The notes under the pieces: generated by a model | Seen by the model: the letters and a program-made list of their open reading frames with translations, nothing else | The model's database searches: none | What the model was told of the DNA's origin: nothing | IMG/VR virus record: IMGVR_UViG_3300001487_000219 | DNA length: 23,166 nucleotides | Direction: 5' to 3' (one strand) | Source: a virus | Part shown: piece by piece, positions 1-5,105 of the stretch | How positions within the stretch are numbered: the first letter of the stretch is position 1 | Layout of the letters: each line of letters opens with the position of its first letter | Made by a program: the position numbers and the translations under genes

Positions 1-587
1 TGATAGTGCCAATTCATATCGACGTTTCCAGAAATTCCCTTTACTTTTCCTTTGCTAGAGTATTGATGATAAATACAATCATAATGAGGAACATCATTAT
101 AATCGGCAAGCCATATTATATATTTTTTTATTGTTGAAGCATCATACCAGTTTTTATAATAATCTTGGTTTAAATAAAATCCAGCTTTGTATCCTTGACT
201 TTCAATATAATCACAAAAGGCATTTGTAAAATCAATACAATTAGTTCTTGTTAATTTAATACCTTTCTTTTTGGCACTATTTACTGTATCATATTCAAAA
301 TCATAGAAAATAATAATATCTTTACCAAGGCCCGCCTCTTCAACGTTTTTAATGCAAGACTTAGCTTCTTTTATTGCGTCATTTTTATTTAATGCATACG
401 CAAAATGATATACGCCATGAATAGCAATGCCCGCATCTTTAAATTTTTTTACATTTGTTAAGAAATGCTTATCTATTGCTTGTCTATATCCCTATCTAAT
501 AATGACAAAATCTATCCCATCATCCTTAATTTTTTTAGCGTCTATATTTCCTTGCCATTGAGAAATATCTATACCTTTTAAAGTCAT
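1..587 (-). CDS. GH25-family lysozyme/muramidase (endolysin). The C-terminal part is cut by the window edge. It contains an in-frame TAG at 494-492 that must be read as sense
   Basis: The minus-strand ATG at 587-585 follows a GAAAGGAGATAAA ribosome-binding site. Translation gives MTLKGIDISQWQGNIDAKKIKDDGIDFVIIR[TAG]GYRQAIDKHFLTNVKKFKDAGIAIHGVYHFAY... The GIDISxWQG and FVII(K/R)xGY motifs are typical of glycoside hydrolase family 25. The frame stays open to position 1 with no other stop. Confidence 0.8.
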
Positions 588-620
588 TTTATCTCCTTTC
601 TAAAAAGAAAAACGGGAGAA

Positions 621-851
621 TTATTCTCCCGTTTCTTCTTGAGTATCTTCAATATCTTTTAATTCAGGCAATCCTGCTAGACTTGTCATAATTGATAAGA
701 TACCAGCTGTGCAAGCTACTGATCCTACATAGATCCAATCTACTTCTTTAAGCGCGGCTCCTACAGTAATCATAGAAGCAAAAGTCTGTGCAAATGTTTT
801 AATTGCACGAATACCAGCAGCTTTTAGCCATCTTTTATTTTTTTCACTCAT
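621..851 (-). CDS. Holin (two transmembrane helices and a charged C-terminal tail; resembles the TcdE/phage holin family)
   Basis: The 76-aa product is MSEKNKRWLKAAGIRAIKTFAQTFASMITVGAAL...WIYVGSVACTAGILSIMTSLAGL followed by an acidic tail, PELKDIEDTQEETGE. The gene lies immediately upstream of the lysozyme on the same strand. There is an AAAGGAGGTG ribosome-binding site, and the stop is TAA. Confidence 0.7.
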   Translation of the reverse strand: MSEKNKRWLKAAGIRAIKTFAQTFASMITVGAALKEVDWIYVGSVACTAGILSIMTSLAGLPELKDIEDTQEETGE

Positions 852-857
852 ACAAAT

Positions 858-900
858 AACACCTCCTTTTGTATATAATTAATATAAAAAAAGAGGTGTT
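858..900 (-). promoter_or_regulatory. Imperfect hairpin that can base-pair the holin Shine-Dalgarno sequence with an upstream anti-SD-like CACCTC element
   Basis: The plus strand has aacacctcctttt (858-870) and aaaaagaggtgtt (888-900), which form an inverted repeat with one mismatch and a loop of about 16 nt. On the minus-strand mRNA the 858-868 arm is the GGAGGTG ribosome-binding site of the holin ATG at 851. Confidence 0.3.
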
Positions 901-909
901 TATATTTAA

Positions 910-1332
910 TTATTCTGACCTTTTATATCTTTCTTTAATGATTTTTAAATAATTTTTATTTGCTTGCAATTCAGTATTAATTTTTAAAATCTCATCTTCA
1001 AGAGATAAAATATTAATACGATACTTTTTCGCAAGTACTTTAAGTCGTTCAATAGCGGCTTCGTTATCTGGGCAAAAATGTGAAAAATCTTTAATTGCAT
1101 CCTGAATAGTATTAAAGCGAATTTTTTCTCTTTTTAATTCTGTAGTATAGAAATCTCTAAATGCCTTTTTCTCTGCAATGCGGCAACCTAAAAATTTACT
1201 TTGGACTGATGTATCTTCGGGATGTACCTTTGCAACTCCTGTAAAATATCCAGATTTTGTTTTTATTACAACGGTAGAGACACCAGTGTCCGCGTCATAT
1301 GTTGATTTAAAAAGTTTTGCTGCCGTTCTCAT
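910..1332 (-). CDS. Hypothetical protein (140 aa, predicted coiled coil at the C-terminus)
   Basis: This is an intact ORF preceded by the ribosome-binding site AAGAAAGGA and terminated by TAA. I recognise no motif in it. Confidence 0.55.
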   Translation of the reverse strand: MRTAAKLFKSTYDADTGVSTVVIKTKSGYFTGVAKVHPEDTSVQSKFLGCRIAEKKAFRDFYTTELKREKIRFNTIQDAIKDFSHFCPDNEAAIERLKVLAKKYRINILSLEDEILKINTELQANKNYLKIIKERYKRSE

Positions 1333-1435
1333 GTTTAGTTCCTTTCTTCTTTCTAATAAAATCTCTAATAATAATAAAAGCCATTTCTACAAAAAGTGTA
1401 CTAAAAATACCTACTAGAACTGGATTTACCGTCAT
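1307..1435 (-). CDS. Possible small membrane peptide (42 aa) overlapping its neighbours
   Basis: Its ATG at 1435-1433 overlaps the TGA of the upstream phosphoesterase gene (ATGA). The product, MTVNPVLVGIFSTLFVEMAFIIIRDFIRKKKGTKHENGSKTF, has one hydrophobic helix and a basic tail. It overlaps the start of the 140-aa gene by 26 nt. It could be a spurious ORF. Confidence 0.2.
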   Translation of the reverse strand: MTVNPVLVGIFSTLFVEMAFIIIRDFIRKKKGTKHENGSKTF

Positions 1436-1974
1436 TTGTTTTTCTCCTTATATTTTTCAATATCTTTAATAATTTGTTCGATACTTACTGGTGTACAATT
1501 ATGAGCATCTACCGCTACATTATAAATACTATATTGCCCAAATTCAAATTTATTAGGGCTATGAGTATGTCCAGATAAATTCCAAAAGAAGCGTTCATCT
1601 TCAAAATTGCTTACAAAAGTAGGATAATGAGAAAGAAAAAATGCTTTTCTTTTATTGTATTTATATATTGAAGCGAAACCAAGATACGTCATATTATATT
1701 CTGTTTGATATTTATTAAGTTTATTTTTTGTATCATGGTTTCCCCAAATAACAATTTTTTCTCCGTTTAATACTTTATAAACCCTGTTCCATTCCTTTTC
1801 ATTTCCGCTCATACAAAGGTCGCCAAGAATGTATACAGTATCTTCTGGAGTAACAACACTATTCCATCTTTTAATAATTTCAGTATCATGTTCTTCTATT
1901 GAAGAGAAGCCGCGCGGCCGCCAAATAAAATCTTTGTCGTGGCCGATATGAAGGTCAGATGTAAAATAAATCAT
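1432..1974 (-). CDS. Calcineurin-like metallophosphoesterase (predicted 2',3'-phosphatase/phosphoesterase of an RNA repair set)
   Basis: The 180-aa product carries the ordered metallophosphoesterase motifs: DLHIGHD (DxH), LGDL (GD), GNHD and GHTH. The start codon lies 1 nt after the kinase TAA. Confidence 0.8.
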   Translation of the reverse strand: MIYFTSDLHIGHDKDFIWRPRGFSSIEEHDTEIIKRWNSVVTPEDTVYILGDLCMSGNEKEWNRVYKVLNGEKIVIWGNHDTKNKLNKYQTEYNMTYLGFASIYKYNKRKAFFLSHYPTFVSNFEDERFFWNLSGHTHSPNKFEFGQYSIYNVAVDAHNCTPVSIEQIIKDIEKYKEKNK

Positions 1975-1975
1975 A

Positions 1976-2467
1976 TTATTTCCTTTCTAAGAGATTCATA
2001 TTTATCCCATCAAAGGTATAGATATAATCAAATGGCTCATTATAAGTAGGAGGTTCTAGTCTAGTATACATATTATGAATTTCATGCGGAGGAACATAGG
2101 CCAAAGTGCCTTTTCTAGTGTCATTACGAGATAGACAAATCTCAAGAGGAATTTTAAAGTAAATTCCTATTATTATTGTTTTTGTCCTATCAATATGTAG
2201 AGCATGAAAAAGTTTGTAACGGCTTTTTAAATTTAAATGGGTGGCGTCTGCGATAACATCTTTCCCATCTGTAATATTTTCATTAATTTGTCGAATAAAT
2301 TCTTTATAGACTTGTTTTTCTTTAGAAAAATAATTGTCTTTTTTATCAATCAATGAAAATCTAATATCGTCTCTTGAGACATGGGTTATTCCTAATAAAT
2401 TCTTTTTAGCAAGGGTAGTTTTGCCTGAACCAGGAATACCCATAAAAACATATAAAATATTTTTCAT
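1976..2467 (-). CDS. pnk: Polynucleotide 5'-hydroxyl kinase, homologous to the T4 Pnk kinase domain (P-loop)
   Basis: GIPGSGKTTLAKK...HVSRDDIRFSL matches T4 Pnk GCPGSGKSTWAREF...NINRDDYRQSI. VIADATHLNLKSRYKLF matches VIISDTNLNPERRLAWETF. LSRNDTRKGTLAYVPPHEIHNMY matches [21 protein letters not shown]. The protein is 163 aa, so it is the kinase domain only. Confidence 0.8.
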   Translation of the reverse strand: MKNILYVFMGIPGSGKTTLAKKNLLGITHVSRDDIRFSLIDKKDNYFSKEKQVYKEFIRQINENITDGKDVIADATHLNLKSRYKLFHALHIDRTKTIIIGIYFKIPLEICLSRNDTRKGTLAYVPPHEIHNMYTRLEPPTYNEPFDYIYTFDGINMNLLERK

Positions 2468-2470
2468 AAT

Positions 2471-2986
2471 TTATCTCTGCCAATCAATCCAATCGTAAGG
2501 AATAGTTTGATTTTGTTCAGGAGTATACCAACGTCCTGAGCGACTTCTTATCTGCCATCTTCTTTCTGCGGTGCTATATCTTTCATTACGTGTTTCTAAA
2601 GTAGTTCCAAAAATATAACGAATACTATTGTCTTTATTTAGTTTTAGAGAAATCCATTTTCTATAGCCTCTTCTTACATAAAAATCATTGGTAATAAGCT
2701 GTCCCGTATAGCTTTCATATGCATACCAACGATTACCGCCATCTCGCAATCTAATTTTACCCTGTGTTAAACTGCCTCTTGGAGAACCAGGAATACTTGT
2801 TTTATGTCCGTAATACCAATGGCCTTCAAACTTAAAGTATCCGGTCATAAGTTTTCCATGTTTAAAAATATAAAGATTTCCTGATTCATCTCCGATGATT
2901 CCGTGGACAAGCTGCCGCTCTTTCATTTGTTCAAAAGTTACTCCAGTTTTCAAGCTATCCTTAGCATAAACTGGATTGGCCATCAA
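2471..2986 (-). CDS. Cell-wall (choline)-binding repeat protein. It is possibly secreted if translation starts at a non-AUG codon upstream (3028 or 3025)
   Basis: It contains repeats of the type GYFKFEGHWYYGHKTS and GGNRWYAYESYTGQ, which fit the GWxKxxGxWYY cell-wall-binding repeat. The in-frame upstream sequence (open back to a TAA) encodes I-I-K-R-L-F-T-I-F-F-I-A-I-V-L-M-A-N-P-V-Y-A, a textbook signal peptide. It has no ATG, GTG or TTG start; an AAAGGAG ribosome-binding site lies 5-8 nt upstream of ATT/ATA. Confidence 0.55.
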   Translation of the reverse strand: MMANPVYAKDSLKTGVTFEQMKERQLVHGIIGDESGNLYIFKHGKLMTGYFKFEGHWYYGHKTSIPGSPRGSLTQGKIRLRDGGNRWYAYESYTGQLITNDFYVRRGYRKWISLKLNKDNSIRYIFGTTLETRNERYSTAERRWQIRSRSGRWYTPEQNQTIPYDWIDWQR

Positions 2987-3058
2987 TACAATAGCAATGA
3001 AAAAAATAGTAAAAAGTCTTTTTATAATATTTGCTCCTTTATTTTATATTTTATATTT

Positions 3059-4282
3059 TTACTGATGAAACTTCAACAAGAACTCATTAGATACTGCCTT
3101 AAAAGATTGCACTCCATCTTCCGAGCGGAAAACAATACCTTCGCGCATATCTCCATCTACCTGAGAAGTATCGGTTGCATATTCTAGCAATTCGTCAACA
3201 GTATCAGGAAGAATGAATTTGCTATTGATAACTGGCACGCAAGGAATCCGGTAATAATCTTCAAGCAACTCTCTCATTTTAAGAGTATTGAATCTACCCT
3301 TATCAGATGTAATTAGGTTAAATGCCATAAAATCATGTCCATTCAGATGATAATCTCTCTTCTGTACTCCTGCCCCATAAGTTTCTCCCTGAATTGTAAT
3401 CCATTCTGCTTCAGGGAACAAACTCAACATTTCAGTTAGAACATGTTCAATATGGTATTTTTCTGCCATCTCGGTATAAATATTAGTTTCATAAAAGCAA
3501 GTTTTGTCAGGCTTATCAAAACAAACATTTCGAGAGCAAACATAGAACTCATTTTTGTGAGGCCATTTTCCTCTTTTGATAGTGAAAGTAGTTGAAGAAC
3601 CATCAATCTTTTCGGTTGCAATCCAAGGGTCCTTATTCTGAAGAATCCAAGGCATATTCTGTACTCTTTCTTCATCAGTTTTCTTTACCCAGGCAGGCCA
3701 ACCAGTTTTATCCCTTTTCTTTCCAAAGAAAATGAAAAGAAGTTTCTTTCCCCATTCCCGTTTCATAAGCCAGCGGAAAGGCTGTTTTGCAAAAAGTTTA
3801 CCATGACGCTGAGCCATTTTCTTATATTTATCTGCGGAAGGAGCTTTGCGGGCGTTATCTTCTGCGACATAATAAGTTACCCCAAGCTGTTTAGTGAGGA
3901 AACGAGAATCATTTCCAGCATTATGTTCAACCCCGTTAGAGTCATGAATAGAATAACCATAATTATGATTTTCTATTGTCCATCCGAAATTTGCGGCAGA
4001 AATAAGAAGTCCCTGAGAAATAGAACGGCACATTTTTTGAGTCTTTACGCGGTATTTCTTTTTCGCAAGAAAATCCATATTAATAAAAGGCTCTACTTCA
4101 GGAAGTTTTGAGTCAATTTCAAAGTAAATTGCAGGGTCGCCCGCTTTAAACTCTCCCTTTCCAACAACGATAGTCCATCCGCCCACATGAGCAAGTTCTA
4201 CTCTATCATATCCTTCGATAGGAGTAATATCGTCAATGGTTACAACATAAGCAAGTTCTCTTTCGTTATTTGCATTAAGCAT
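3059..4282 (-). CDS. ATP-dependent RNA ligase (covalent nucleotidyltransferase; the N-terminal extension before the NTase domain suggests an Rnl5-like architecture)
   Basis: The 407-aa product has motif I, ATEKIDGSS, with the lysine near residue 220. It also has the motif IV/V-like EGIVFR...KAVSNEFLLK. An N-terminal domain of about 200 aa (YVVTIDDITPIEGYDRVELAHVGGWTIVVGKGEFKAGD) precedes the catalytic lysine. Confidence 0.8.
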   Translation of the reverse strand: MLNANNERELAYVVTIDDITPIEGYDRVELAHVGGWTIVVGKGEFKAGDPAIYFEIDSKLPEVEPFINMDFLAKKKYRVKTQKMCRSISQGLLISAANFGWTIENHNYGYSIHDSNGVEHNAGNDSRFLTKQLGVTYYVAEDNARKAPSADKYKKMAQRHGKLFAKQPFRWLMKREWGKKLLFIFFGKKRDKTGWPAWVKKTDEERVQNMPWILQNKDPWIATEKIDGSSTTFTIKRGKWPHKNEFYVCSRNVCFDKPDKTCFYETNIYTEMAEKYHIEHVLTEMLSLFPEAEWITIQGETYGAGVQKRDYHLNGHDFMAFNLITSDKGRFNTLKMRELLEDYYRIPCVPVINSKFILPDTVDELLEYATDTSQVDGDMREGIVFRSEDGVQSFKAVSNEFLLKFHQ

Positions 4283-4445
4283 AGAAGAATCCTCCTTTCA
4301 TATCTTCATTATTAATAATTCTTTCAATAAAGAAAATTTTTTCTTTATCTGAAAGGAAATTACTTTTTAATATTTTTTTTATGTTATCTATTTGATATTC
4401 CATTCTGAGGTAATCCTCATTTTCATCTGGGTCAAACATTCCCAT
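4275..4445 (-). CDS. Small hypothetical ORF (56 aa) bridging the 86-aa gene and the RNA ligase
   Basis: MGMFDPDENEDYLRMEYQIDNIKKILKSNFLSDKEKIFFIERIINNEDMKGGFFYA. Its TAA overlaps the ligase ATG (ATGCTTAA). It is below the 60-aa cutoff of the ORF track. Confidence 0.25.
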   Translation of the reverse strand: MGMFDPDENEDYLRMEYQIDNIKKILKSNFLSDKEKIFFIERIINNEDMKGGFFYA

Positions 4446-4447
4446 AA

Positions 4448-4708
4448 TCAATCTTCCCTTTCTGTCAGTGTTGTAAATTCCTCAAGACGTAAACTTAAAA
4501 CATCGTCCTCAATATAAAAAATATCATTACCGTAAGTAGATTCATTCCAGGTTATGAACATAGTTAGAAGTTGGCCTACTCGCAAACTAGGGTGCTTATG
4601 ATGAAGTGCTTTAAAATCATCCCAAAAACTCATAATTTCTATGAATCTTTGAATACATGTATCTTCACTCTTGTTATTAATAGCATTAAGTCTCTTATTA
4701 TTTGTCAT
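4448..4708 (-). CDS. Hypothetical protein (86 aa)
   Basis: This is an intact ORF with a TGA stop. I recognise no motif in it. Confidence 0.5.
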   Translation of the reverse strand: MTNNKRLNAINNKSEDTCIQRFIEIMSFWDDFKALHHKHPSLRVGQLLTMFITWNESTYGNDIFYIEDDVLSLRLEEFTTLTERED

Positions 4709-4711
4709 TTC

Positions 4712-4825
4712 TTATTTCCTTATTAAATTTTTAATTAATGTTATTAATGCAATATCCAGCACAATTAAACATAGTATTAATGAGATAAAACTTGTTGCAA
4801 TAAAAATATTAAATAAAATATCCAT
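4712..4825 (-). CDS. Possible small hydrophobic peptide (37 aa, one transmembrane helix)
   Basis: MDILFNIFIATSFISLILCLIVLDIALITLIKNLIRK is tightly packed between the 65-aa and 86-aa genes. It could be spurious. Confidence 0.2.
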   Translation of the reverse strand: MDILFNIFIATSFISLILCLIVLDIALITLIKNLIRK

Positions 4826-4828
4826 TTT

Positions 4829-5026
4829 TTATCCTATCGGCATACCTAAACTTTTAAATTTAATTTTTTCAAAAATTTCTGCAATCCATGTCGCTTGAAC
4901 CATACCATTTTCTACTGGATACTTTTTTAATTCTTTATAAAAATCCTCGATATAAATAGCTTCTGTAGGTCGTTTTTTCCATTCTCCATAAAAATCATTT
5001 TTCATTTTTTCATTTCCTTTTCTCAT
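4829..5026 (-). CDS. Hypothetical protein (65 aa, or 58 aa if translation starts at the second ATG, which has a better AAAGGAA ribosome-binding site)
   Basis: The ORF has a TAA stop. The first ATG at 5026 lacks a ribosome-binding site; the ATG at 5005 has one. Confidence 0.45.
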   Translation of the reverse strand: MRKGNEKMKNDFYGEWKKRPTEAIYIEDFYKELKKYPVENGMVQATWIAEIFEKIKFKSLGMPIG

Positions 5027-5055
5027 TTCTTATAAATAAATTTTATCAAAAATTT

Positions 5056-5097
5056 ATAAAAAAAGCAAGAAAAATTGTTTGACCAATTTTTCTTGCT
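5056..5097 (-). terminator. Intrinsic terminator immediately after the MVP-like gene
   Basis: A perfect 14-bp stem, agcaagaaaaattg (5064-5077) paired with caatttttcttgct (5084-5097), has a 6-nt loop. On the minus-strand transcript it is followed by a U-run (TTTTTTTA). Confidence 0.65.
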
Positions 5098-5105
5098 TAT
5101 AAAAA

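Follow-up and report, generated by a model that had tools for sequence, protein, structure and literature searches.

In-frame TAG codons in a phage endolysin gene and a putative glutamate-type amber suppressor tRNA from the same genome

The lysis genes at the left end of a 23,166-nucleotide stretch of viral DNA (IMG/VR record IMGVR_UViG_3300001487_000219, analysed over its whole length and called the window here) include a predicted endolysin whose reading frame is interrupted by the amber codon TAG. We consider it likely that production of this lysin is gated by TAG and that a suppressor tRNA of glutamate type, encoded by the same phage, would open the gate. Comparison of the window with related phages indicates that TAG most likely stands for glutamate, not for glutamine as in genetic code 15, and we hold with good confidence that glutamate is its main meaning in this genome. 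We also judge it probable, if with less assurance, that this is the first phage lineage in which amber means glutamate by way of a CUA suppressor derived from tRNA-Glu, and in which TAG codons 32 and 456 of the lysin are kept as TAG by purifying selection, their identity as stop codons locking the lysin to the late phase. The gating idea itself is not new, having already been proposed by Borges et al. (bioRxiv 10.1101/2021.08.26.457843). What is new here is the Glu-type suppressor, the pattern of TAG at Glu sites and the position-specific conservation of TAG-32 and TAG-456.

The endolysin gene and its TAG codons

The part of the lysin gene that lies in the window carries the following features.

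593..599, minus strand: Shine-Dalgarno-like AAAGGAG, 5 nucleotides before the lysin ATG, read from the sequence and conserved in relatives
3..587, minus strand: first 195 codons of the endolysin gene, encoding its GH25 muramidase domain, from Pfam and PHROGs matches; the gene passes the left edge of the window
567..569, minus strand: Asp codon 7 (GIDIS), the first catalytic Asp by alignment with LytC, upstream of TAG-32
492..494, minus strand: in-frame TAG at codon 32 (FVIIR-TAG-GYR), the same codon in each of the 17 sequences compared; most likely Glu
294..302, minus strand: codons 96-98 (D-F-E), the GH25 catalytic D-x-E motif by alignment with LytC 2WW5/2WWC, downstream of TAG-32

From its ATG (587-585) the gene encodes MTLKGIDISQWQGNIDAKKIKDDGIDFVIIR up to codon 31 (AGA, 497-495); TAG (494-492) follows, then GGA TAT and the rest of an in-frame continuation, GYRQAIDKHF..., that reaches the window edge. 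The full gene (L022:10265-11737, on a public contig of the same genome) encodes 490 residues, ends in TAA, and combines a GH25 domain (residues 6-185) with CHAP and GW wall-binding domains, three domain matches within one open frame of 490 codons. The 195 residues obtained by bridging the TAG match PF01183 with 95.6 bits (cutoff 27) over residues 6-185 and the full profile (1-180), GH25 homology lies on both sides of TAG-32, and the lysin matches endolysin PHROGs at E = 1e-44. D7, D96-F-E98 and D190 align with IDIS, YDVE and RVDV of LytC 2WW5, and E98 is Glu in 109 of 110 homologues. By both its profile match and its catalytic residues, the product is a predicted enzyme of the GH25 muramidase family.

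An earlier reading made from the sequence alone, the sequence-only reading, had described a single in-frame TAG at codon 32, in the middle of a catalytic motif FVIIR-x-GY. The position and the surrounding motif are as it stated, but the other two parts of the description need correction. The count of one applies just to the part of the gene inside the window, the full gene in L022 holding nine TAGs (codons 32, 197, 206, 282, 300, 385, 390, 456 and 488). Position 32 is not a catalytic residue; within a conserved strand motif it is the variable position, x, beside the invariant Arg31.

These nine TAGs in 490 codons compare with one in 4,937 codons of 19 same-strand neighbours (Fisher p = 3e-9). 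The lysin is a recoding island within a long, otherwise TAG-free block.

Conservation of TAG positions among relatives

The relatives' lysins come from 12 IMG/VR loci and 3 short public contigs and are 99-59% identical; the count for codon 32 covers the window and 16 relatives' assemblies, independently assembled from different samples. TAG-32 is present in all 17 of these sequences, across 99-59% amino acid identity, and the codons that flank it vary synonymously (AGA or CGT for Arg31, for example). Recurrence of this codon in homologous phages, which the sequence-only reading had put forward as a check, is found in 16 of the 16 relatives' assemblies.

The same reading had named two ways in which its claim could fail, a sequencing error at the TAG and a downstream in-frame start, and neither is borne out. 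That the TAG reflects a sequencing or assembly error, that the gene is a pseudogene, or that the active product comes from an internal start is next to inconceivable: the same codon occurs in 17 independent assemblies from different samples, all 16 beyond the window included; the frame is open for 490 codons with its three domain matches; and codons 2-190 contain no in-frame ATG, GTG or TTG, the first start codon coming not before codon 191. A restart after TAG-32 would also lose D7, because D7 precedes that codon. Nothing but the stop codon as such speaks for an artefact or a dead gene. Completing the lysin is thus predicted to require UAG read-through, and the earlier claim that it needs TAG decoding holds up in silico, with no start in codons 2-190 and a CUA tRNA in the same genome.

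Each full-length lysin carries 6-10 TAGs. TAG-456, in the GW domain, is present in 13 of 13 full-length lysins, and the only other codon with TAG throughout is codon 32. At the codon pair 299/300, every lineage has exactly one TAG (as TAG-E, E-TAG or Q-TAG). When the window's lineage is compared with others, its average TAG is matched by TAG in only ~17% of cases, and because of this low background TAG-32 and TAG-456 look selected as TAG. Their retention, though Glu codons are available, points to selection that may act on stop-codon identity itself.

Alternatively, there may be no special gate, the lysin being an ordinary late gene whose TAGs are neutral by-products of a genome-wide change of code. 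The TAG density of the lysin (1.8%) is close to that of the structural genes (1.8-2.2%), its TAG/(TAG+GAR) ratio of 37.5% against 21.8% is judged not significant for 24 sites, and other non-structural genes further along the strand carry TAGs. Nevertheless, neutral accumulation is an unlikely explanation given that TAG-32 and TAG-456 recur in every lineage against ~17% for the average TAG, that the pair 299/300 always keeps exactly one TAG, and that the immediate neighbours avoid TAG, the holin across 13 orthologues included.

What TAG encodes

To compare the use of TAG with that of sense codons, 21 gene families were aligned between the window and its relatives, and codons were threaded through the alignments. 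At 70-90% identity, TAG is paired with GAA/GAG 106 times and with CAA/CAG 29 times; at 45-70% identity the counts are 182 and 34. The partner spectrum of TAG fits Glu best, by >200 log-likelihood units, and a state defined as 'TAG or Glu' equals Glu in its degree of conservation. With each otherwise invariant column counted once, the residue that TAG stands in for is Glu in 23 columns and Gln, Lys and Asp in 2 each.

Individual sites are consistent with this pattern. Among 110 homologues with less than 64% identity, A (59) and E (25) prevail at position 32 and Q is not one of the seven most frequent residues; the closest standard-code homologues have E there, in the sequence REGYR. In the lysin of the relative L015, TAG takes the place of the catalytic Glu (FFDF-TAG-YD), the residue that is Gln in the LytC chain of entry 2WWC. 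In the CHAP region, TAG falls at the E of GGT-E-CG in the lysin of the window's genome and of CGV-E-RH in L012. Outside the lysin, a Gmk-like gene of the window's genome (L039:19759-20340) carries TAG in place of the last residue of the RP(G/S)E motif, which is Glu in all three of the best-matching solved guanylate kinases. Alignment of TAG with Gln in conserved proteins, as code 15 would have it, is not what these comparisons give. The searchable literature holds no report of amber-to-glutamate reassignment in phages.

Three public lysin proteins (P0017, P0021 and P0033, from loci L013-L015) have Q at these sites, and because their DNA has TAG there, the Q comes from code-15 translation.

A candidate suppressor tRNA

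ARAGORN called no tRNAs in the window and ~30 neighbouring loci; its intron mode at default thresholds likewise gave none, and lowered score thresholds gave noise only. A leftward walk along relatives through the replication module (ligase, RecJ-like, NrdD) met no tRNAs either. Walking along relatives did lead to a tRNA array, upstream of a DUF2828 gene. One contig of this array, L129, overlaps the window's genome over 8,690 nucleotides with 0 mismatches, and opens (L129:1-74) with a CUA tRNA gene from which the contig end has cut off the first two or three bases; the gene lies ~13 kb beyond the right edge of the window. A full copy is present in a relative (L130:4318-4393) and scores 53.4 bits against the Rfam tRNA model.

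The complete suppressor has G1.U72, U8 G9, a D arm of GUCA-AACGGUUUA-AGAC, a 4-nucleotide variable loop and A73. Phage tRNA-Glu genes in the same arrays share these features; the tRNA-Gln genes there have the D arm GCCAAGCGGTAAGGC, a 5-nucleotide variable loop and G73. The motif GGTCAARCGGTT(N)AAGAC, searched for in 185,579 species genomes, occurs at at least 120 loci; among the matches listed, all but one are from Bacillota by record title, and all 112 of the tRNAs with the motif that ARAGORN called are tRNA-Glu (87 UUC, 24 CUC and one miscalled). The body of the suppressor is therefore predicted to be of the Bacillota tRNA-Glu type, and a single substitution separates a CUC from a CUA anticodon. 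Covariance models built from the phage tRNA-Glu and tRNA-Gln sets give the suppressors 61.5 vs 48.7, 55.5 vs 36.9 and 58.9 vs 48.4 bits, in each case in favour of Glu. With its D arm, 4-nucleotide variable loop and A73, this tRNA is not the glutamine-type suppressor that accompanies code 15.

Other searches were less telling. Simple pairwise similarity to 271 phage tRNAs left Asp, Glu and Arg tied, blastn of the suppressor against GenBank phages returned nothing informative, and an exact-sequence scan of IMG/VR found no contigs beyond the two already in the set. ARAGORN labels the gene 'tRNA-Pyl', a label that comes from the anticodon only; we rejected pyrrolysine decoding on the architecture of the tRNA, no search for pyl genes having been made in the part of the genome outside the data. 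Pyrrolysine tRNAs have a 3-nucleotide variable loop and a 6-bp anticodon stem and lack both the D-loop GG and the T-loop consensus; the suppressor has a D loop with GG, a T loop with GTTCGA and the 53.4-bit match to the general model.

More distant phages (L155) carry two Gln-like CUA tRNAs, and the Glu-type suppressor appears to be a feature of the lineage. CUA tRNAs of 90-91 nucleotides with a long insertion after the anticodon stem occur in other distant relatives (L110:20832-20921 and L138:8065-8155), so that suppressor type varies across the phage group. The array of the window's own genome also holds a 72-nucleotide tRNA-like gene (L129:2186-2257; 29% GC) with the anticodon UCA, which would read TGA; it adjoins tRNA-Gln(UUG).

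Glutamate or glutamine

Several observations weigh against TAG as glutamate and against this tRNA as its decoder. Among genomes 94-97% identical to the window, TAG is exchanged with CAG in 4 columns, with CAA in 3 and with GAG in 1, and the exchanges with CAG and CAA look like Gln synonymy. Pairs in other lineages at identities of at least 88% (GAA 46, CAG 23, GAG 2, CAA 2) do not fit either. The suppressor copy of the window's own genome has an incomplete 5' end, and the tRNA has G1.U72 as its first pair and a G7.G66 mismatch. The Glu covariance model favours unrelated tRNAs too, by ~8-10 bits, which makes it a weak test alone, and the margin of the suppressor is only slightly above theirs. 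GluRS reads the anticodon, as studies in E. coli and Thermus established, and Glu charging of a CUA tRNA is for that reason not guaranteed; in hosts with GlnRS, the tRNA could be mischarged with Gln. Finally, another suppressor, a release factor or a synthetase could be encoded in the ~90 kb of the genome that lie outside the data.

Much of the short-range pattern traces to one tail-fibre gene (18027-20498, plus strand), which holds 5 of the 7 Gln cases at 94-97% identity. Between the window and L016, six of its eight TAG columns differ (five TAG/CAR and one TAG/CGG). The gene is 93.8% identical in nucleotides to its counterpart in L016, with an amino acid divergence of 9% against 1-3% in neighbouring genes, and its TAG turnover is faster than neutral change under either reading of the codon. 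Three explanations are possible for the exchange of TAG with CAG at short range: TAG to CAG may be the only viable transition from TAG, tail-fibre alleles may have been swapped with code-15 phages, or some Gln may be inserted at TAG. A switch of the window's lineage to Gln was considered and rejected, since its own TAGs stand at conserved Glu sites and its own suppressor is Glu-type.

Taken at face value, the seven Gln columns and the single GAG column in the window's own lineage would suit ordinary code 15, in which TAG means glutamine (the code of crAss-like, Lak and phAss-1 phages), and the gating logic would be unchanged. Some variable columns mix TAG and Q, public pipelines already translate these genes with Q, and published recoded phages read TAG as Gln (PMC10607447; bioRxiv 10.1101/2021.08.26.457843). 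At longer range, however, TAG pairs with Gln in only 6-7% of cases, as opposed to 56-79% for true Gln codons, and conserved columns have Glu over Gln by 23 to 2. Gln would be expected to inactivate the lysin of L015 at its GH25 catalytic Glu, or the guanylate kinase at its Glu, and the suppressor has neither the Gln-type D arm nor the 5-nucleotide variable loop nor G73 and scores low with the Gln model. We therefore regard code 15 as quite unlikely.

A further alternative is that decoding is ambiguous, the CUA tRNA being charged partly with Glu and partly with Gln (for instance through mischarging by GlnRS) and TAG being tolerated where either residue works. The mixed partner pattern, roughly 90% Glu-like and 10% Gln-like by an estimate from pair counts, is in keeping with this, as are the short-range exchanges with CAG and the proneness of amber suppressors to Gln mischarging in E. 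coli. Yet TAG also occupies positions where Gln should be non-functional, and a second amino acid is not required by the data if TAG to CAG is the only viable transition. Ambiguous decoding thus seems to us very unlikely, and glutamate remains the reading of TAG that we prefer.

A model for the timing of lysis

If TAG is glutamate and the tRNA described above is its decoder, the lysin could be controlled as follows. Under host translation alone, UAG would terminate and leave a 31-residue fragment without the D-x-E catalytic centre, as the sequence-only reading had foreseen; early in infection, the host release factor would stop synthesis at codon 32. Upon expression of the tRNA array, the CUA tRNA with its tRNA-Glu body would accumulate, and UAG would be read, most likely as glutamate. 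Full-length lysin would then be made together with the TAG-rich structural proteins. Because all nine TAGs need reading, lysin yield would be a steep function of suppressor level, which would tie wall degradation to the late phase.

The earlier suggestion that recoding serves as a timer of late genes and lysis gains support in silico, the structural genes on the plus strand being rich in TAG. Two points weigh against the model: its order of infection events is inferred, and the TAG-free state of the holin is not significant within one protein of 76 residues.

The holin and the intergenic hairpin

621..851, minus strand: r1t-type holin, 76 amino acids, TAA stop, 0 TAG (PF16945, phrog_443)
608..636, minus strand: hairpin of 13 pairs resembling an intrinsic terminator, its loop containing the holin stop codon, and T-run; the top terminator-like match

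The adjacent holin, described earlier as ending in TAA and free of TAG, is so by its sequence and by its match to PF16945 (57.2 bits, cutoff 26.9) and to phrog_443 holins. Two hydrophobic stretches can be read from its sequence, and the gene ends 33 nucleotides before the lysin start. Among 13 distinct holin orthologues, 11 have no TAG and 2 have one. The terminator-like hairpin lies between the two genes, 20 nucleotides before the lysin ATG; its structure is kept in four other lineages with different stem sequences and is absent in L013.

Comparison with known systems

Our findings fit into a broader picture of stop-codon-recoded phages. Borges et al. (bioRxiv 10.1101/2021.08.26.457843) described such phages with recoded lysis cassettes in crAss-like, Agate, Jade and other clades, proposed that recoding blocks premature lysis, and placed a lysozyme-type gene among the most recoded families. 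Shared with those phages are in-frame TAGs in structural and lysis genes, standard-code neighbours of replication type and a phage-encoded suppressor tRNA. The present genome differs in that comparative and tRNA evidence favours Glu where TAG is Gln in those phages, and in having a lone TAG island in the lysin, a holin that avoids TAG and single TAG positions conserved across lineages. Code 15 has been validated by metaproteomics in crAss-like phages (PMC9523058). As in that code, only TAG is reassigned here, TAA and TGA stay stops and the host presumably uses the standard code; the amino acid is probably another one, neither the alignments nor the suppressor being of Gln type.

The phAss-1 or 'Phassvirus' group (PMC10607447) comprises gut phages of 133-138 kb with TAG in 37-41 open reading frames (ORFs) and two or three tRNA-Sup-CTA genes. 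Genome size, a large tRNA array, TAG in structural genes and Firmicutes-type relatives are common to that group and the present phage, and in some members of the group TAG also occurs in the holin or dUTPase. Unlike the Glu-type tRNA here, its suppressor was typed as Gln. Nucleotide similarity to the group is also lacking in the GenBank phage collection, where megablast of the whole window gave no match and tblastn of the lysin gave a best match of only 41% identity; the collection thus offers no annotated relative.

Outside phages, reassignment of a stop codon to glutamate has a parallel in the nuclear code of peritrich ciliates, which reads both TAA and TAG as Glu (NCBI table 30). That code is eukaryotic and genome-wide, whereas the present one would be phage-borne and confined to certain genes, and TAA, which ends most genes, is not a sense codon here. 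With canonical Gram-positive phage lysis (r1t holin; GH25 lysins such as Cpl-1, LytC and Psm), the locus has in common the two genes in the same order, the absence of a signal peptide from the lysin, the GH25 catalytic residues and a C-terminal wall-binding domain. It departs from canonical holin-endolysin lysis in the added translational lock that the nine TAGs would place on the lysin and in the conserved terminator-like hairpin between the genes.

With a heavily recoded lysin, an unrecoded holin and neighbours, and TAG conserved by position, the locus is an unusually clean natural test case. If TAG is indeed Glu, amber reassignment in phages is not uniformly to Gln, code-15 translations of the whole clade carry the wrong residue at every TAG, and lysins in public databases with Q at TAG sites hold a wrong residue. 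A natural tRNA-Glu(CUA) that works in Bacillota would be of interest for genetic-code expansion and for the identity rules of GluRS and GatCAB, and it suggests that one change in the anticodon of any host-like tRNA that tolerates it can create a suppressor.

Genome setting

The window is part of a ~140-kb genome of a virulent-type, uncultured phage with a probable Bacillota (Gram-positive) host, to judge by the homologues of its lysin and by the tRNA-Glu signature. Searching with the holin protein led to ENA contig NODE_148 (139,964 bp; L022), where 10.9 and 11.7 kb of sequence match the window at 100% identity. Beyond the lysis genes, the window falls into two parts.

910..8184, minus strand: TAG-free block, 0 TAG in each gene
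8209..23166, plus strand: late structural block (baseplate and tail-fibre) in which TAG is a sense codon, from ORFs and orthologues in relatives

The plus-strand genes of the structural block hold 22, 13, 5, 13, 4, 2, 4, 1, 0 and 1 in-frame TAGs. Fragmented ORFs at 8.2-23 kb become long, abutting genes only when TAG is read through, and the summed length of ORFs with 100 codons or more then grows from 18.9 to 28.6 kb. Reading through TAA produces spurious overlapping ORFs, and reading through TGA does not merge ORFs, TGA still being the stop of several window genes. All genes of the window stop at TAA or TGA, with TAA as the main stop.

None of the minus-strand genes at 621-8184 contains TAG. 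The block at 910..8184 comprises a 140-residue ORF, a phosphoesterase, a PNK-like kinase, a 170-residue ORF, an RNA ligase, small ORFs, a major vault protein (MVP)-like protein and a 182-residue ORF. The RNA ligase, kinase, phosphoesterase and MVP-like genes lie upstream of the lysin on its strand; gyrB, gyrA and the NAD-ligase gene lie downstream in L022. Genes of replication or early type (gyrB, gyrA, ligase, RNA ligase, helicase and PolIII) have 0 TAG. The earlier statement that this strand is otherwise written in standard code is correct for the near neighbours, at one TAG in 4,937 codons, but fails further down, where Gmk-like, NrdD, dUTPase, RuvC-like and glutaredoxin-like genes carry 1-5 TAGs each and a GIY-YIG gene carries TAG as well. 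TAG use in the genome is thus not confined to structural and lysis genes.

The densest use of TAG that we saw is in that GIY-YIG protein (L032:2268-3236), ~11 kb left of the window start in the same genome, with 16 in-frame TAGs in 322 residues (5% of codons) amid a replication region otherwise free of TAG. Its membrane helix is N-terminal and its GIY-YIG domain C-terminal, and it also contains a long coiled coil. Within the TAG-free block, the region 1432-4282 (minus strand) could guard phage tRNAs, the suppressor included, against host anticodon nucleases. The MVP-like gene (5106-7595, minus strand) encodes 829 residues with major-vault-protein shoulder and repeat domains (PF11978, 83 bits), and tblastn among GenBank phages matched it only to three 'uncultured phage' records (462-735 kb) at 39-42% identity. 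In one near-identical genome, a GIY-YIG gene splits gyrA (L024:14820-18230), and the PolIII-alpha-like gene, a single ORF of 1,325 residues in L041:14968-18945, is divided into 859, 306 and 367 residues in the window's genome (L039:14599-19784). These split genes look like the result of mobile-endonuclease traffic in the replication module.

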